Part shown: positions 1-32,324 of the stretch, piece after piece | Position numbering within the stretch: the first letter of the stretch is position 1 | How the letters are laid out: each line of letters opens with the position of its first letter | Source: a virus | Lineage: Duplodnaviria > Heunggongvirae > Uroviricota > Caudoviricetes | Length of the DNA: 39,079 nt | Strand: one strand, 5' to 3' | Virus record (IMG/VR): IMGVR_UViG_2609459839_000001 | Notes under the pieces: generated by a model | Told to the model about the DNA's origin: nothing | Databases searched by the model: none | The model's input: the letters and a program-made list of their open reading frames with translations, nothing else | Position numbers and translations under genes: made by a program

Positions 1-327
1 TTACATGGTCAATTTGATTCCATTTCCATGTTTTACCTTCTTCACTGCCTGCCTGGAAATATATCTACAAAAAGCTGTGTAATACGCAATGCGGCGCAGG
101 CCTTAACTGACGATGGAACTCTATACGGAGCCACAATTCTTGGTGACGGCGTTGTGCACAATAGCTTCGGTCAAAAACTGATGCGCATTTACAATCAAAA
201 AGGCATCTTTTCAAACACAAAAGATTCCGAAGAAGGCTTAACACATATACTCTCAGAGCATTTCGAGAATGTTAAAACCAAGATTAAAGGTACTGTAGTA
301 ATGTTTTCCGCTTCAGGGAAAAAATAG
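1..327 (+). CDS. hypothetical protein, 3' part of a gene running off the left edge (possible cargo gene)
   Basis: Reading frame is open from nt 1 (no stop upstream of the ATG at 28), ends TAG 325-327; no SD before the internal ATG; no family recognised. Confidence 0.3.
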   Translation, partial: LHGQFDSISMFYLLHCLPGNISTKSCVIRNAAQALTDDGTLYGATILGDGVVHNSFGQKLMRIYNQKGIFSNTKDSEEGLTHILSEHFENVKTKIKGTVVMFSASGKK

Positions 328-334
328 CATCCAG

Positions 335-367
335 CCGCAGCACGTTCTTGCGCACGACGTGCTGCGG
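335..367. terminator. perfect 10-bp inverted repeat (CCGCAGCACG / CGTGCTGCGG, 13-nt loop) just after the stop of the left-edge ORF
   Basis: Read directly; no clean U-tract on the plus side, TATTTTTT follows on the minus side. Confidence 0.3.
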
Positions 368-774
368 CATAATCCCAATGATTACTCCCTGACAGGGTTC
401 GTAGGCCACTCAATATCAGGTGCAGTTGATGTATCAACACGGTTCAGCAACACCCTGCATGCCTTCCATGCCGCCAGCAATGATGTTTCCTCCTTCGTTG
501 CATATACTGCTCACCTTTTTCACCCACGATTAACCAACAGCCAGATTCGCAGGCACGCCCCACCACGGCATATTCATACGCTTGCCATGTCCGAACATTT
601 CAATCCAGCGATATTATGCCTGGGGTGTTCAAGCGCAATGAAGTACGTATTGTATCTTCGCGATTTTTTATAGGCTAATTGACGCGCAATTCTGAGCGGG
701 GAGCGCACAATCAAACAGCACAGAATGGATCGCTGATATTTATCCTTTTGTCGGTTTATCAAACAACAAGAGAG

Positions 775-2604
775 TCAATAGCGGATTGTCCCTACATCCA
801 TTTCTGGCGAATCCACTAACCAGAAATTATCTGGCTTTACAGCCAGAATGATCCAGGCAGTGTTTGTTGTTGATGACCAGGAAGGCAGCACATCGTATGC
901 CGGGTCATCGCAAGAATCACGATAACCGTACTCATTAAAAAGTGGAGCCATTGCTGCCACAAGATTCACCGCATTCAGCTCATTACCCAGCTTGCGCTCA
1001 AAAAGTGCCACCCCTGCCGTTCCTTCCACCCACACGCCACGGCTGTGACCACTATAACCATAATCAGGGTGGTACGGTGTGTAACCCGTGGTTTCCCTCG
1101 TACCAAATAAAAAACGCCCCATATATTTTCGGCACTTAGCCGCTTTCTCAGCATCAATATTGGCAACAAACAATCCGCCCCAGGAAGACTGATCCAGCGC
1201 CGCTGCGTTGTCATAGTGGGTTGAATGAACCCCCTGTCGAAATCGGCCTTCATCTTCCACCCACAGACCTCTGATGATGCTCTTTGCCAGCCTGTCAGCC
1301 CGCTCACTGAAACCGTCAAATCCCAGCCGTCCCATCAGTTCAAACAAAAACCAGATATCAACGTTATGCTCCAGTGCGCACCATTCGGCGACAAAAGTTT
1401 CATCAAAATTGCCGTCCACATAACGCCCCTGCCCCCCTTTATACAGGCCTTCACGCAGGTCGCCTGGTGTGCTCACCAGAAAAGTATCCAGCCAGGCAAT
1501 GCCTGCCAATAGCTTTTCTCTGACCCGCGCAGTCTGAGTACCGTCCGGATACTTCTCCAGATAGAAAGCAAGAGCATAATAAACCCATGCCGCATTGCCC
1601 AAGCGGTAATAGGTACGCGGTGACATGGCAGACAGCCTGTTAACAAAAAACTTTACTCCACCGTTTTCATCAACAAGCGCACACAAGCCCGCAACGTATC
1701 TTTCTACAGCCTCATGTCGCTGAACCATCAACGCCAGTGCTGCCAGCGCCTGGTCATACGTGTAACACCGATCTTTCATCACCCTGATCACTTCGGGGTC
1801 TGCGTCCTCCGGCATCCAGTAGCTACGAATGAGCAGTGGAAACTCCAGCGTTGTGATCCACGCATTATCCTCAATCCGAATAAGACGAAACTGTTTTGCT
1901 CCCGTCCAGCAACGTCTGAAATAGAAAGTTCCGTCACTATTCAAATTAGCGTCGCCGTTAAAATACTCTCCGGTTGTATAAGCATACATATCGACTTTAT
2001 ACTTTTCAGGTTCAGGAATATCGCAATATCCGTTAACTGCACCGACATAATTAAAATCGATATTTTCTTTTATTTTTAAAGATATTGATGTATTAACAAC
2101 CTCGGGTTGTTCCAGTTTTAACATTGCAGTAGTGCAACGACTCACGATGTCGTCAAAGTTCTCAAAGCGCAAACCGGGAAAACTATCGGCTATTCCCTGC
2201 ATTTCAGACAGTAACGCTTCTGCCCTTTTTGTCGCTGATATTGCCACATCTGCACTTCGTTGCGCCTGACTTGTCAAATCTTCAAATCGTTTCACCACAT
2301 CTGGCTTCAGGTCGCCTTCGTCGGGGGCAGTCAGAAAATCATTCAGCGTACCTGGTCTGGAACCTTCATAAACGGTAATGGTCCCGGCATGTGAAGGCGG
2401 AAAACCTTCAACCAACAGGGTGACGCTGTACTGACCATACTCAACATCCATGCTGTAACGTCCAGCTTCATCCGGATTTTCTGAGGCCACCGTGTTCACC
2501 ACAACCGTTGTGCTGTTACGTTTTGCCTTCAGTTGAATAGTGCAGTTCTGTATTGGTTTTCCCGCACCATCTTTCAGCACACCTGAGATTTTTACTGCTG
2601 CCAT
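775..2604 (-). CDS. side tail fibre / tailspike-like protein: lambda Stf-like N-terminal anchor fused to a non-fibre, enzyme-like C-terminal domain
   Basis: N-terminus MAAVKISGVLKDGAGKPIQNCTIQLKA...EAGRYSMDVEYGQYSVTL matches my recollection of the lambda Stf N-terminus; remaining ~480 aa lacks fibre repeats; ATG at 2604 preceded by GGTGGTGG; no tfa-like gene downstream. Confidence 0.7.
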   Translation of the reverse strand: MAAVKISGVLKDGAGKPIQNCTIQLKAKRNSTTVVVNTVASENPDEAGRYSMDVEYGQYSVTLLVEGFPPSHAGTITVYEGSRPGTLNDFLTAPDEGDLKPDVVKRFEDLTSQAQRSADVAISATKRAEALLSEMQGIADSFPGLRFENFDDIVSRCTTAMLKLEQPEVVNTSISLKIKENIDFNYVGAVNGYCDIPEPEKYKVDMYAYTTGEYFNGDANLNSDGTFYFRRCWTGAKQFRLIRIEDNAWITTLEFPLLIRSYWMPEDADPEVIRVMKDRCYTYDQALAALALMVQRHEAVERYVAGLCALVDENGGVKFFVNRLSAMSPRTYYRLGNAAWVYYALAFYLEKYPDGTQTARVREKLLAGIAWLDTFLVSTPGDLREGLYKGGQGRYVDGNFDETFVAEWCALEHNVDIWFLFELMGRLGFDGFSERADRLAKSIIRGLWVEDEGRFRQGVHSTHYDNAAALDQSSWGGLFVANIDAEKAAKCRKYMGRFLFGTRETTGYTPYHPDYGYSGHSRGVWVEGTAGVALFERKLGNELNAVNLVAAMAPLFNEYGYRDSCDDPAYDVLPSWSSTTNTAWIILAVKPDNFWLVDSPEMDVGTIRY

Positions 2605-2613
2605 ATCCACCAC

Positions 2614-2645
2614 CCCACAAAAAAGCCCGCCAGAATATGCGGGCT
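2614..2645 (-). terminator. rho-independent terminator downstream of lom
   Basis: Stem AGCCCGC/GCGGGCT (2624-2630 / 2639-2645), 8-nt loop, followed on the minus strand by TTTTTTGTGG. Confidence 0.55.
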
Positions 2646-2661
2646 GTCATAACACTGCTAA

Positions 2662-3261
2662 TCAGAATTTATAACCGACACCCACGATAAAACCGTCAGT
2701 GCGCCAGTCACCACTGCCGGAGCCTTCATAAGCAATATCAATGGCCACGGATTCGGTCGGGTTAAACTGCACGCCAGCTCCCCACGCCAGAGAGGTGTTA
2801 CTGTGGCGAGCGTCATCACTTCCGGTCAGCACGTCGTGCGTTTTTCCCTTGTTGTCAGTTACGCGGAGATAATCCCCGGAAAAAGTCGACACACGGCTGT
2901 AAGCCACGCCTGCCATCGCATACGCGCTGAACCATTCATTCACGCGCACAGATGGCCCCGCCATCATGCTGAACCAGCGGTTACGCACTGAATCTTCATG
3001 CCAGCGGGTATCACTGTAACGGGTAATCTGGCGATTCTTGTCTCCGGCATAACTGAATGACGTCACCAGCCCCAGCGTGTCCGTAAATTCATAACGGTAT
3101 TTCACGTTAATGCCCTTCAGGTCATCGTTGCCGGGCATATCAGTATGGGACTGAATATACCCGGAGCTTAGTGTGGACTGATGCTCTGCTGCACTCGCTG
3201 GCGTACCAGCGGCAACCAGCCAGACTACTGCGGACAGAATAACAGCACATAATTTACGCAT
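2662..3261 (-). CDS. lom: Lom/Ail/PagC-family outer-membrane beta-barrel protein
   Basis: 199 aa, signal peptide [25 protein letters not shown]-terminal ...GVGYKF; position immediately after J as in lambda. Confidence 0.85.
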
Positions 3262-3328
3262 AATTACCTCTCGCTTTTCTGCAATAAAAAAGGCGCCATT
3301 TCTGGCGCCCGTATCTGGGTTATAAAAT

Positions 3329-6300
3329 TCAGCTAATCGTGATGCCTGCAGTGGCTTTCTTCATCACAACAACCAGCAAATCGCTGATACTTGCTGTGGG
3401 ATACCAACCATTTACCCACCATGCTGATACAGAAAACTCCAGTGTCATTACGCCACTGCCTGCAGGCATATCAATAACACCCGTGTATATCAGCGTATTA
3501 TCCAGAGCCGTTCGGTTATAAATTTCAGCCCCGTTTTTCTTCACTATCAGGCGGCATGACGAATAAGTATCGCTATTCTCCCGCTCATGTCTGGCACCGC
3601 TGAAAGCCACCGCAGGAATAACAATTTGCCGGTCAAACGGCTGATCGTCATAAACCCTGACGGTAATGGTCCCTGATGGCCACCGCTCCGGTGCACGGGA
3701 GTCCCGGGGGAAAGCTTTGCCCACTGTTTTAACGAGATCGCCTTCAATCTGGTTCGCGGACAGTTTTCCCAGAACCCGACAGTTCTCGTTAATCGTGACG
3801 TTGTTGAGCGTCCCTGAATTTGCATTCACATTACCGCTGATATCCGCATTTTTAGCGGTCAACTTTCCGTCCGGTGTCAGGGAAAATGCCGGCGGATTTC
3901 CACCGCTGGTAATGGTGGGAGCCGTCAGGCGTTTCAGGAACACGTCGTTCATGAATATCTGGTTGCCCTGCGCCACAAACATCGGCGTTTCATTCCCGTT
4001 TGCCGGGTCAATAAACGCGATACGATTGGCGGCAACCAGAAACTGGCTCAGCTTGCCTTCCTCCGTGTCCTCCATGCTGAGGCCAATACCCGCGACATAA
4101 TGTTTGCCGTCTTTGGTCTGCTCAATTTTGACGCCCCACATAGCATTCCATTTATCGTTAGCGTCCTTCCACTCTTTCGAAAACTCATCCAGTCTGCTGG
4201 CGTTATCCTCCGTCAGGTCGACTTTTTTCAGCAGCTCTTTACCGAGATGGGATTCGGTTATCTTGCCTTTGAAAAAATCCAGGTAACCTTCCGCATCATC
4301 GCTCGCCCGACCGACGGCCTCCACGAATGCCGATTTGCCAACGGTGTTCACACTGCGGATATAAAAGTAATAATCATGGCCCGGTTTGATATTGATACTG
4401 GCGGCTATCCAGTACAGCCCCGTGCCAAGGTAGCGGGCTGTGGTTTCAACCTGCCTGATATCGGTAATCCGCGTTTCCGAGAACCAGAACTCAAACTGTA
4501 CCGTCGGATCATAAACCGCAAGATGCGGCGTGGCAGTTATCTGAAAATAGCCCGGCGTCAGCTCAATCCGCGACGGCGCTGCCGGGGCGGCAATCCGGAA
4601 CGATACCGATGCCGGATCGCCCTGCTGCCCCCAGGCATTTGCCGCCCGGACTGTCAGCCTGTAGTTTCCCAGCGCCAGTTGCGTGAAGCGGTATGTGGTT
4701 TCCGTCGTCCGGGCCGTGCTGACCAGCCGCTCACTGCCGTCATCCGCTGCCACGGTCAGGCGAAGCATAAAGCTCACACCCTTCACCACCTTCGGCGTAT
4801 CCCAGCGCGCCAGCACCTGGTATTCCCCGCTGTCTGCGGTGACTTCGGCAGTCAGATGCTGCACTGCTGGCGGTGTGACCCCGTTCACCGTGCCGCTCTG
4901 GTCGCCGTCAAAGTGCGCCCCGTTATCCACGATGGCCTCTTTTTCCGGTACATGCTGCACGGCGGTGATGGCATACGTGCCGTCGTCGTTCTCACGGATA
5001 CTCACGCAGCGGAACAGGCGCTGGCGCAACGTCGGCAGCTTCAGCCCCCATACGCTGTATTCAGCAACGCCGTCAGGAACACGGCTCACTTTCACCTTCA
5101 CGCCGTCGGTGACGGACTGAACCTCCACGCTGACCGGACTCCCCTGCCCGTCAACCAGGCTTATCAGCGTGGTGCCGGAAGATGGCAGCGTGATTTCACG
5201 GTCGAGCGTCAGCGTCCGGGTCTGGCTGTTTACCGCCAGCACGCGCCCGCCGGTGCGGATACCGGCATAGTCATCATCGCAGATTTCAATGACATCCCCC
5301 GGTACATGGCGAAGCCCTTCGGCACCCACGCTGAAGTCCACGGTCTGCGTTTCCAGCAGTTCTGTTTTAATCAGCCACAGCCCGGCGCGGTGTGCCTGCC
5401 CCCGGCTGGTACAGCCAAAAGCATCCATCTTCGTGACGTTACGACCGTAACGGGCAATGGCCTGCGTGTCCTCCACAAGCTCTGTCGCCGTCTCCCAGCC
5501 GTTATTCGGGTCAATCCAGTTCACCTCAACGGCATTATGGCGGTCCTTCAGGGCGCTGAAGCTGTAGCGGAACGGCGCACCATCATCCGGCATCACCACA
5601 TTACTGCGGTTATAGGTCCACACCTTATCCGACCGTCGGTCCTGCACGAACGTCAGCGTCTGCCCGTTCCATACCGGCATACAGCGCATCGCCGAGCAGA
5701 AATCACTGAGCACATCCCACGCCTTGCGCTGCGTGGTCATGTACGCATTACAGGTGATGCGCGGCTCCGTGCCACCAAAGCCATCCGGCACCGACTGGTC
5801 GCAATTCTGGCCGATGACATACAGCGCCCATTTATCCACATCCGCCGCACCAAGACGTTTCCCCATGCCGTAGCGCGGATGGGTCAGCATATCCCACAGA
5901 CACCAGGCCATGTTGTTGCTGTATGCTGGCTTAAACGTTCCGTCCCAGATACCGCTGTATTGCCGCGTCTGCGGGTTATAGTTCGACGGCACCTGCAGAA
6001 TACGCCCGCGAAGATGATAATTACGGCTCACCTGCTGACTGCCGAACTGTTCCGAGTCCACCTGCACGCCGACCAGTGCCGTGTTCGGGTAGCACTGTTT
6101 CACATCGATGATTTCGGTGTATGACGACCAGAGCGTTTTGTTCTGCAGCTGGTCTGTGGTGCTGTCCGGCGTCATCCTGCGCATCCGGATATTAAACGGG
6201 CGCGGCGGCAGGTTATCCACCACTACCGATGCCAGATACTGCGAGGTGGTTTTGCCCTTAATGGTGATGTCTTTTTCCGTCACCCAGCCACCGTTACGTT

Positions 6301-6724
6301 GTATCTGAACCAGCAGGCGGACTTCCGATGGATTCCGGTCCCCTTTTGAGGTGGTTTCCACCAGAGCCTGCACACCGAAGGTAAAACGCAGACGGTCGAT
6401 GTTTGCAGACGTGATGGTCCGGATGATCGGCGTGTCGTATTTCACTTCCGTACCCAGCACCTTCTCGGAGCCGGAGGATTCAAACCCCTCAGGCGGTGTC
6501 TGCTCCTGCTCACCTGCCCGGAACACCACCGTGACGCCGGATATATTGGTATTCCCCTCACTGTCCAGCACCGGCGTACTGTTCAGCAGCACGCTTTTTA
6601 ATCCATCCACCGGGCCTTCAATCGGGCCTTCACTAATGGCATCAATCACACTCAGTAACTGCGTTGATTTGAGATTATCTTTCGCCTCACGCGGAGTGTG
6701 TGCTTTACCGCCACCTTTACCCAT
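3329..6724 (-). CDS. J: host specificity / tail tip protein J
   Basis: 1131 aa; N-terminus [41 protein letters not shown] and overall length match lambda gpJ. Confidence 0.95.
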
Positions 6725-26098: not shown

Positions 26099-26173
<75 letters not shown>

Positions 26174-26176
26174 ATA

Positions 26177-26252
<76 letters not shown>

Positions 26253-26254
26253 AC

Positions 26255-26331
26255 TGGACCGCCACCGGGGACTCGAACCTCGCACACTCAACTTAAAGGG
26301 TTGACGCTCTTTCCTGATGAGCCAGTGGCGG
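26255..26331 (-). tRNA. aberrant tRNA-like gene, anticodon UUU (Lys) if functional; possible pseudo-tRNA
   Basis: CCGCCAC acceptor with CCA end and TTCGAGT T-loop, but C at position 33, atypical D-loop, and an A-C mismatch in T-stem. Confidence 0.45.
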
Positions 26332-26332
26332 T

Positions 26333-26408
26333 TGGTGGCCCTTGCTGGATTTGAACCAGCGACCTGGCGATTATGAGTCGCTCGCTCTCACCACTGAGCT
26401 AAAGGGCC
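26333..26408 (-). tRNA. tRNA with anticodon CAU (Met or Ile2/lysidine type, ileX/ileZ-like)
   Basis: GGCCCTT acceptor, anticodon loop CTCATAA, TTCAAAT T-loop, CCA end; resembles E. coli ileX. Confidence 0.75.
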
Positions 26409-30931: not shown

Positions 30932-31277
30932 TAAGTGCGGGTGCGTTGAGGATGCCTGACACATCAGAGGTGGCGAGGGATTTCTCCCTCGCCTGGTCTC
31001 TTACTCCTCAGGTTCGTAAGCTGTGAAGACAGCGACCTCCGTCTGGCCGGTTCGGATTCGTACCTCGCAGAGGTCTTTCCTCGTTATCAGTACCGCAACA
31101 ATTTCGTATTCATGATTCATTTCATCTAAAACAGTTCATAAACCTAAATAAATTCAAAAAATCACAACACAAATAAATATAAATTATCTCATCCTGAAGA
31201 ACGATAGGATTATTTAGAATTAATAACAATTAATGTAACAATAATTATCAATCCAGATTATTCAAATAAAATGTCAT

Positions 31278-32324
31278 TTACCATATGGAGTTGTGAATGA
31301 ACTTTAATTCATTTTTTATTTTGTTAACAGATAAATTCACGGATGTCCTAACTCTATTCACAGTCATTGCATCTCCTGGATTTAACAACTCTAATGGTTT
31401 AGACTTAGCACTTGACATTCTGCCACTACCCAGAAAATCATCAAGAATCACAATGTGATTATTAGGATCATCTGTTGTAAAATTACTAATATTTTGTCGA
31501 ATTACCTCTCTTACAGCTTCGATGTACATTTTTGTCTGTTGATTTGGTTTATTCCTTGCTCCTGCCACTGTTGACCATCCGCAATGGGTAATAACCACCA
31601 TCTGAATTTTTGGTGTATGGCCATCAGACGGCATTATCTTTCTAAATTCTGATGTTGGTTTAGTCAGAGTATCAATAAGTAATCTTAATGAATTAATCGA
31701 TTGCTGATCTGTCCTCACTGGAACTATTAAAGCATCTGTTGCATGCCAAGATAAATGCGTCGCTCCAGAGAAAAAAGGTGATGTATCAATTAACGCTTTT
31801 GTAGTACCAGTTTCAACCATTTCTCTGGCTATTTCTTTCTTCAGAGAAAAAAGAATTGTATCAATAACAACCTGCTGAGTAGCCCCAGAAATTGTTCTGG
31901 CTTGAGCCAGAGCATTCGCCATTTGCGTAGGTAGAAGATAAAGTTGACTATCAGATTGAATAAAATAGTTATTCTTGCCCGCAAACCAAGCATTAGTTGA
32001 TGATACTAGCTTTGCAGCACGCGTTGCAAATCCAAGCCCTGGAACAAAATAAGGCATTAAGAGGTCATTTGCAGTTGTGCTAGACGAAGATGCATAATTA
32101 TTGTCAAAAAAATATGATAAATTTCCTTGCGGGCACGTATCCACGATTAATGCGTTATCCGCCAAATATGACAGATTAAAAGTTAAAGATGTCTTACCAA
32201 TGCCTCCCCGTAAATTACATACTGTATATTTATCATATTTCGGCAAATTAAGACTTCTTACATTACCGTCAGCAACTTCGAATTGACGCTCTATCAGAGC
32301 ATTAACATTTGATTCACTAGTCAT
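31278..32324 (-). CDS. ParA/MinD-like P-loop ATPase in AT-rich cargo segment
   Basis: 348 aa; deviant Walker A NLRGGIGKTS (Arg where ParA/MinD have the signature Lys), DTCPQGN motif; region visibly AT-rich. Confidence 0.7.
   Translation of the reverse strand: MTSESNVNALIERQFEVADGNVRSLNLPKYDKYTVCNLRGGIGKTSLTFNLSYLADNALIVDTCPQGNLSYFFDNNYASSSSTTANDLLMPYFVPGLGFATRAAKLVSSTNAWFAGKNNYFIQSDSQLYLLPTQMANALAQARTISGATQQVVIDTILFSLKKEIAREMVETGTTKALIDTSPFFSGATHLSWHATDALIVPVRTDQQSINSLRLLIDTLTKPTSEFRKIMPSDGHTPKIQMVVITHCGWSTVAGARNKPNQQTKMYIEAVREVIRQNISNFTTDDPNNHIVILDDFLGSGRMSSAKSKPLELLNPGDAMTVNRVRTSVNLSVNKIKNELKFIHNSIW

Follow-up and report, generated by a model that had tools for sequence, protein, structure and literature searches.

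The 39,079-nucleotide stretch of DNA analysed here (IMG/VR record IMGVR_UViG_2609459839_000001), called the window below, is a lambdoid prophage of E. coli that is complete in its head, tail, lysis and Q-region genes. The last gene of its tail operon codes for a side tail fibre (Stf) protein of 609 amino acids (aa), in which the tail anchor of lambda Stf is joined to a globular head that has a predicted (alpha/alpha)6 barrel. Our data favour, with some reserve, the view that this protein is a short side fibre whose head is a probably active, predicted surface-polysaccharide hydrolase that works independently of the O-serotype of the host. Enzymatic receptor-binding proteins decide the host range of phages and are under development for use against biofilms and capsules. 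To our knowledge, nearly all that have been described are trimers with a beta-helix or beta-propeller fold, each limited to one O- or K-type. If the proposed view is true, a compact, chaperone-independent head would fit the lambda collar of engineered delivery particles and would be a convenient module for retargeting lambda-type vectors, and a surface polymer that is conserved and serves as a receptor could come to light.

Anchor, neck and head of the fibre protein

The fibre gene runs on the minus strand from an ATG at 2604 to a stop codon at 775-777 and its reading frame is intact. An in-frame GTG at 2613 is an alternative start, which would add three residues. The parts of the gene are as follows.

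775..2604, minus strand: whole gene, side tail fibre with an enzyme-like head (open reading frame (ORF) list, coordinates checked by script)
2326..2604, minus strand: lambda StfN collar domain, tail anchor, aa 1-93 (PF08400 and PDB 9e7m/9mgh)
2110..2325, minus strand: flexible linker and helical neck, aa 94-165 (helices in both AlphaFold2 (AF2) models)
1843..2082, minus strand: beta-sandwich before the barrel, aa 175-254 (AF2 strands at construct positions 45-124, predicted local distance difference test (pLDDT) of the block 94-98)
835..1797, minus strand: predicted (alpha/alpha)6 barrel, glycosidase-like head, aa 270-590 (AF2 model)

It was proposed in an initial annotation, made from the letters alone, that the first ~120 aa resemble the N-terminus of lambda Stf. 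This holds, as aa 3-128 match PF08400, the Pfam model for the N-terminus of prophage tail fibres (E 2.1e-62; 209.5 bits, cutoff 26.6), and in a phmmer search of the PDB aa 3-93 aligned, at E 9e-49, with aa 2-92 of chain 9e7m/9mgh of the lambda tail fibre, to which they are almost identical. In Ur-lambda, Stf residues 1-94 form a collar domain of a beta-sheet plus a helix, 12 copies of which encircle the gpV/gpM junction; three collars with their ~10-residue linkers lead into one trimeric coiled coil, so that there are four side fibres in all (PMC12617516). The window protein shares with lambda Stf the conserved linker motif and the start of the helical stalk, and presumably also the 12-copy collar and the four trimers. 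Neck helices lie at about aa 101-139 and 150-164 in both AF2 models, the full-length model being of low confidence in this part; it was built from a 15-sequence alignment and was used for the helical neck only. One heptad register in aa 95-145 has hydrophobic a/d positions at 80%. By analogy with the linker and coiled coil of lambda Stf, the neck is probably a short trimeric coiled coil.

Lambda Stf, a protein of 774 aa, is unlike the window protein in its long coiled-coil shafts, in its T4 gp37-like tip that binds OmpC and in its need for Tfa. No PF03406 or other fibre domain and no internal repeats were found in the window protein, and its model is globular. It belongs to the Stf family by its anchor and position only, since it lacks both the fibre and the Tfa of that family.

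The remainder of the protein had been described in the same annotation as globular, helix-rich and neither repetitive nor Gly-rich. Residues 131-609 contain 8.1% Gly and 14.2% W+Y+F, with 13 Trp and no repeated 5-mer, and this composition suggests a globular carbohydrate-active protein. The AF2 model of the 479-aa head construct (m000f626f8412, from a 56-sequence alignment) reached a pLDDT of 95.5 and a predicted template modelling score (pTM) of 0.93, and consists of a helical connector, the beta-sandwich and the barrel of 11-12 helices. Composition and barrel agree with the description; the beta-sandwich of ~80 residues had not been foreseen. The list of fold comparisons of the head model with known structures was led by dextran dextrinase 9ju0 (score 32.5), the endo-mannanase MmpH 7qsj (31.6) and the glycoside hydrolase (GH) family GH15-related glycosidase 5z3a (29.9), followed by cellobiose 2-epimerases (about 29), GH76 mannanases (about 28) and glucoamylase/glucodextranase (about 27). 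The Foldseek result was consistent with this list, and a fold search of BFVD gave one strong unnamed match and little else. The tail protein VP4 of the archaeal spindle virus SSV19 (7xdi_F) scored much lower against the head and has no sequence similarity to it. An alpha2-macroglobulin-like thioester domain was considered and rejected for the head, the CGEQ motif being absent.

The model has the features of a six-hairpin glycosidase, namely a twelve-helix double barrel whose inner helices start with conserved acids and aromatic residues. The weak, sub-threshold Pfam matches of distant family members are likewise all to six-hairpin families (GH63-like, GH94, GH37, GH88). The earlier suggestion of a tailspike-like receptor-binding protein that may carry a polysaccharide-degrading domain is thus supported by a predicted six-hairpin glycosidase-like barrel. 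By sequence search, residues 131-609 matched nothing in Pfam, NCBIfam or the PDB, and a 56-sequence family profile gave only chance hits against the PDB. The PHROGs label for the head is 'tail fiber protein', with nothing further.

Conserved residues, relatives of the head and the candidate substrate

Conservation was measured in 130 homologues less than 45% identical to the query, aligned to the family hidden Markov model (HMM), and is given in full-length numbering. Six carboxylates (D284, E412, D416, D465, D471 and E527) are 94-100% conserved in these distant homologues, and one His, one Arg and five Trp are also near-invariant. The two results named in the initial annotation as refuting it, a beta-rich, non-enzymatic fibre and a lack of catalytic acidic residues, were both not found. 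Every residue listed here is found in the window protein.

Y283 100%, D284 98%, R334 90%, G336 100%
W408 85%, E412 99%, H413 98%, D416 98%
W448 91%, D465 94%, L470 100%, D471 99%
W475 98%, W525 95%, E527 100%, W584 98%

Most of the conserved residues lie in the first turn of alternate barrel helices (DSSP of the model; helices starting at construct positions 152, 205, 281, 340, 396 and 449), which, going by the model, would be the positions where six-hairpin glycosidases form their funnel. The head has a dN/dS of 0.07 at a dS of 0.83 and of 0.13 at a dS of 0.28, values that indicate strong purifying selection on the domain. The codons of particular interest are these.

1369..1371, minus strand: E412, motif E412-H413-N-x-D416, candidate general acid (E in 129/130, H in 128/130, D416 in 128/130)
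1024..1026, minus strand: E527, motif W525-x-E527-G528, candidate base or nucleophile (E in 130/130)
1192..1194, minus strand: D471, motif L470-D471-xxx-W475 (D in 129/130, L470 in 130/130)
1753..1758, minus strand: Y283-D284, motif Y-D-Q-A, start of the first inner helix (Y in 130/130, D in 128/130)

E412 stands at the start of the sixth barrel helix and E527 at the start of the model helix 396-408. The general acid of GH15 is located in the alpha5-alpha6 loop (PMC12446779). The correspondence of E412 to it, like the acid/base assignment as a whole, is drawn from helix order and conservation only.

The closest known folds belong to GH15 and clan GH-L (9ju0, 7qsj, 5z3a, 1lf6, 1ulv), with 9-14% identity to the head. 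The (alpha/alpha)6 barrel with a preceding beta-sandwich is shared with the bacterial members, and a beta-sandwich plus a helix-loop-helix does precede the barrel in bacterial GH15 enzymes and dextran dextrinase (PMC12446779). However, the head gave no PF00723 match at E<=1 and no profile match to PDB chains, and hhalign of the family profile with A. niger glucoamylase (sequence = 3eqa) returned a non-significant probability of 0.08. In that alignment, the part of glucoamylase with Arg54-Asp55 of WTRDS was set against YDQA and no other stretch, and this pairing was not significant either. Whereas GH15 has its base site in the alpha11-alpha12 loop, the head has the invariant acids E527 and D471 instead; and while the known GH15 and GH-L enzymes are metabolic or secreted, the head stands on a predicted virion part. 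By sequence, the head does not belong to GH15.

The comparison with phage depolymerases is also one of partial likeness. Those of the P22 gp9, Sf6, G7C and K1F type share with the window protein an exchangeable N-terminal anchor and a C-terminal head that is glycan-active or, in the window protein, predicted to be so. In contrast, classical depolymerases are intertwined trimeric beta-helices or beta-propellers acting on a single O- or K-antigen, while the head is a globular barrel in each chain and is kept across O-serogroups. In DepoScope the 'alpha/alpha toroid' is a rare class of candidate depolymerase fold, found in 11/984 INPHARED and 29 of ~3,900 Klebsiella prophage proteins, and makes up ~1% of predicted phage depolymerases (PMC11326577, PMC12491483). 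The design is rare but not unprecedented, and the head family itself has no characterised member.

For this family, 784 cluster representatives at E<=0.001 came out of an exhaustive profile search, 197 of them at E<=1e-30; a word-indexed homologue search with alignment had returned close relatives only, and it was the exhaustive search of representatives that reached the distant members. No Pfam model, structure or characterised member was found in databases or literature, and therefore one biochemical assignment would annotate many phage tail proteins and exopolysaccharide operons. The literature yielded no lambdoid Stf with a glycosidase or six-hairpin head, and neither the Gifsy-1 Stf paper nor the Stf-engineering preprint describes such a head.

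The head has been reused as a module. At 50-97% identity it stands behind at least five anchors, namely PF08400 (with very divergent collars), PF12571 (P2-type), PF18668 (tailspike N), PF03406 shafts and PF25613, and the shaft between collar and head varies from ~40 to >400 residues. A virion anchor swapped among five families and joined to a domain predicted to be glycan-active is the arrangement of depolymerases. In more remote relatives the domain is joined to a phage nozzle protein, to a baseplate hub and to a T4 gp5-like needle. A second type of siphovirus prophage carries a homologue after a J-like gene, likewise at the potB site, and in a P2-like prophage, where H and Tfa come first, the homologue is the second fibre gene. 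The head was found in 16 of 50,697 phage records, the carriers being phiSTEC1575-Stx2k, a 348-kb E. coli jumbo phage and Microbacterium, Coprococcus and Thermus phages, and in 41 of 5,426 complete E. coli genomes; full-length copies are present on several hundred contigs. In Escherichia phage phiSTEC1575-Stx2k, a complete deposited genome, the copy is 98.4-98.7% identical, is the last tail gene and is annotated 'tail protein', and some Microbacterium phage copies are annotated 'minor tail protein'. Support for presence in the virion comes from such 'tail protein' and 'minor tail protein' annotations in phage records only.

Two sets of relatives bear on the substrate. Strains of O169:H41, O27:H7, O18 and O6:H16 carry heads that are 99% identical or more, and a copy 85% identical is recorded from Yersinia enterocolitica. 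Near-identical heads in unrelated O-serogroups, together with the Yersinia copy, argue against specificity for one O-antigen, and an O-antigen-specific tailspike was down-weighted on the ground of the O169, O27, O18 and O6 heads. The second set consists of single-domain cellular relatives from Polyangiales, other Deltaproteobacteria-like metagenome-assembled genomes and Bdellovibrionota, which are annotated 'hypothetical'; two of the three sequences examined have lipoprotein signal peptides. At three independent loci (L013 4641-7230; L014 4693-9207; L016 3317-11699) the relative is encoded between a gene for a divergent tetratricopeptide repeat (TPR) protein and a gene for a glycosyltransferase family 2 (GT2) synthase. 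The TPR protein has weak PgaA-/BcsC-like TPR matches and a weak match to a YaiO-type outer-membrane barrel. The synthase, of 504 aa, matches PgaC/IcaA, NodC and CelA best in NCBIfam, all below the cutoff, and in one locus its start overlaps the stop of the relative. The cluster continues with a receiver domain and then a HEAT-repeat protein of ~1,200 aa.

This cluster looks like an undescribed synthase-dependent exopolysaccharide system. In such a layout the relative takes the slot of the accessory hydrolase (BcsZ, PssZ, PgaB), which supports a polysaccharide-hydrolase role for the family; in the comparison with BcsZ, PssZ and the C-terminal domain of PgaB, the head family showed no sequence relationship to GH8 or GH153. 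Because of the spread over serogroups and the cellular exopolysaccharide operons, the substrate is more likely to be a conserved polymer than a specific O-antigen. The more likely candidates would be poly-N-acetylglucosamine (PNAG), cellulose, enterobacterial common antigen (ECA), colanic acid or the core of lipopolysaccharide (LPS).

Genomic setting, proposed mechanism and its alternatives

The fibre gene is the last of a lambda-like tail operon with the order J, lom, fibre, all on the minus strand, and so occupies the slot that stf has in lambda. In near-identical E. coli genomes the fibre end of the prophage adjoins potB-potA-pepT. The neighbouring features are listed below.

3329..6724, minus strand: J, central tail fibre/host specificity protein, 1131 aa (ORF list; labelled gpJ in matching genomes)
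2662..3261, minus strand: lom, Ail/Lom outer membrane protein, directly upstream of the fibre gene (PF06316, E 9.5e-121)
2605..2661, minus strand: lom-fibre intergenic region (sequence and terminator scan)
382..510, minus strand: tfa relic, last 42 codons and stop (PF02413 Caudo_TAP positions 95-130 of 131, E 2.2e-14)

Ahead of the fibre ATG lies a Shine-Dalgarno-like run, GGTGGTGG, and the terminator scan placed a terminator-like hairpin at 2645-2624, upstream of the ATG. No sigma-70-like promoter was found within window positions 300-3400. The stf gene of lambda is expressed by read-through of the late operon, and because of the missing promoter the same is expected for the fibre gene.

The initial annotation held that no tfa gene follows the fibre gene. 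It was right that there is no intact tfa, but it overlooked the 42-codon 3' relic, which is all that stands in the place of the cognate tfa directly downstream of an stf. About 265 non-coding bases separate the fibre stop from this relic, which the Prokaryotic Genome Annotation Pipeline (PGAP) labels as a pseudogene 'missing N-terminus' in the near-identical strains F9792, TW10690 and SA53-3. The cassette of head, spacer and tfa relic recurs in other lambda-like prophages, and no Caudo_TAP gene follows the head in 3/3 enterobacterial contexts examined. The simplest history is a single replacement event, in which stf from about codon 130 to the middle of tfa was swapped for the head module. The Tfa chaperone folds intertwined fibre tips. 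A head that is globular in each chain would not need it, and this may be why tfa decayed to a relic. In related genomes a second tfa relic lies past a methyltransferase gene, suggesting that modules were replaced repeatedly at that end of the prophage.

Copies of the gene and of the sequence after it vary among strains. In phiSTEC1575-Stx2k (L003 6843-7142) the fibre gene is followed by a frame for a 99-aa hypothetical protein with a TTG start and a hydrophobic C-terminus. In the window (574-762, minus strand) this frame is shortened to 62 aa by deletions of 1 bp and 62 bp and is without a match in Pfam; the frame may either be spurious or code for a small membrane protein that is dispensable. 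In several RefSeq genomes the PGAP annotation of the fibre gene takes in the first ~130 codons only and is flagged as a pseudogene 'missing C-terminus'. The flag is apparently an annotation artefact because the full reading frame is intact: at L001 4775-6610 it codes for 611 aa, and at L012 814-2640 the 1440-nt head-coding part has no internal stop. The C-terminal fragment of one broken copy is named 'glucosidase family protein' (WP_315682179.1). At L010 265-2132, in E. coli 99-3165 and about 10 other genomes of enterotoxigenic E. coli (ETEC), what remains of the fibre gene is its 3' 1.24 kb, joined directly to a truncated portal gene; the deletion took the whole tail operon and most of the head operon, and the head-coding part was kept at 99.9% identity.

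We propose that a lambda-type side fibre has lost its distal, receptor-recognising fibre and carries in its place an enzyme-like head that folds by itself. The N-terminal 93 residues would form the collar, with twelve copies around the junction of tail tube and tip as in Ur-lambda, and a short linker and a helical neck of ~40-70 residues would join three chains into a stub. The virion would then carry four short trimeric stalks and twelve heads, each chain contributing one beta-sandwich and (alpha/alpha)6 barrel that would fold without Tfa. The head would bind and hydrolyse a glycan of the host surface, serving as a reversible tether and clearing the path for J to the outer-membrane receptor. 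E412 and E527 are the candidate catalytic residues, in a funnel that would be lined by D284, D416, D465 and D471, and the substrate would be a conserved polymer and not a specific O-antigen. A wider version of this proposal is possible, though we hold it only tentatively: the family would be a new GH family, whose cellular members are periplasmic hydrolases of an undescribed PgaC-like system and which phages of very different hosts have captured as a virion enzyme, the form in enterobacterial prophages being a serotype-independent depolymerase for a conserved polymer (PNAG, cellulose or ECA, for example) displayed twelve-fold on the lambda collar.

Several observations weigh against the main proposal of a short side fibre with a hydrolase head. 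The head has no significant match to a CAZy-linked Pfam family or a solved structure, and its relatives are all annotated 'hypothetical' or 'tail protein'. The (alpha/alpha)6 fold is also found in epimerases, isomerases, terpene cyclases and thioester domains. At the GH15 base site the 130 homologues have no conserved acid (D/E fractions 0.08-0.24); the catalytic pair is therefore not assignable by homology, and E527 or D471 is the likelier choice for the second catalytic residue. The cellular relatives are only ~25-30% identical, so the substrate may differ. The full-length model is poor (pLDDT 62), which bears on the putative trimeric stub, the small ORF downstream in phiSTEC1575 is broken in the window, and some prophage copies are decaying.

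Some of these points would suit a head that is a non-catalytic, lectin-like receptor-binding module on an (alpha/alpha)6 scaffold, holding the phage to a glycan or protein. In phage receptor-binding proteins an enzyme fold often serves for binding alone, no characterised member of the family was found, the catalytic pair cannot be mapped onto GH15, and lambda Stf itself is an adhesin only, which binds OmpC (PMC12617516). Nevertheless, the six carboxylates, the His and the Arg are near-invariant in hosts with different glycans (E. coli, Microbacterium, Thermus, Myxococcota-like genomes). As a rule a binding site changes with its ligand, unlike catalytic machinery, so this invariance counts against a lectin; so does the place of the cellular relatives in the hydrolase slot of exopolysaccharide synthase operons, and we regard a mere lectin as unlikely. 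More improbable still is a head with another activity, such as that of a transglycosylase, lyase or epimerase/isomerase-type enzyme, or one that acts, while the envelope is being penetrated, on glycans of the periplasm or the cell wall (peptidoglycan, osmoregulated glucans). The gene could also be a non-functional recombination scar of a decaying prophage, absent from virions. The tfa relic and the broken downstream ORF would fit this, as would the PGAP pseudogene label in some genomes and the other strains in which a truncated copy is fused to a portal remnant or the copy is split by a frameshift. Yet the ORF is intact in the window and where PGAP calls it partial, the dN/dS of the head is 0.07-0.13, a near-identical gene is the last tail gene of phiSTEC1575-Stx2k, and full-length copies exist on several hundred contigs, so that a scar seems very improbable indeed.

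Other features of the prophage

The first 327 positions of the window (plus strand, opposite to the fibre gene) are the 3' end of a gene for a class I S-adenosylmethionine (SAM)-dependent methyltransferase. In related genomes this gene sits between the tail end of the prophage and potB, and it may be a moron or a cargo gene. Between the Q-antiterminator region and the lysis genes, at 26099-26408 on the minus strand, is a cluster of four tRNA genes (Gly-TCC, Thr-TGT, Lys-TTT and one with a CAT anticodon); the CAT-anticodon tRNA was called Met by ARAGORN, against Ile in RefSeq for a related strain. In the early region, the GC content falls to 0.35 at 31001-32000; the equivalent stretch of related prophages holds a ParA-family gene and hypothetical genes, and the region may be horizontally acquired cargo.

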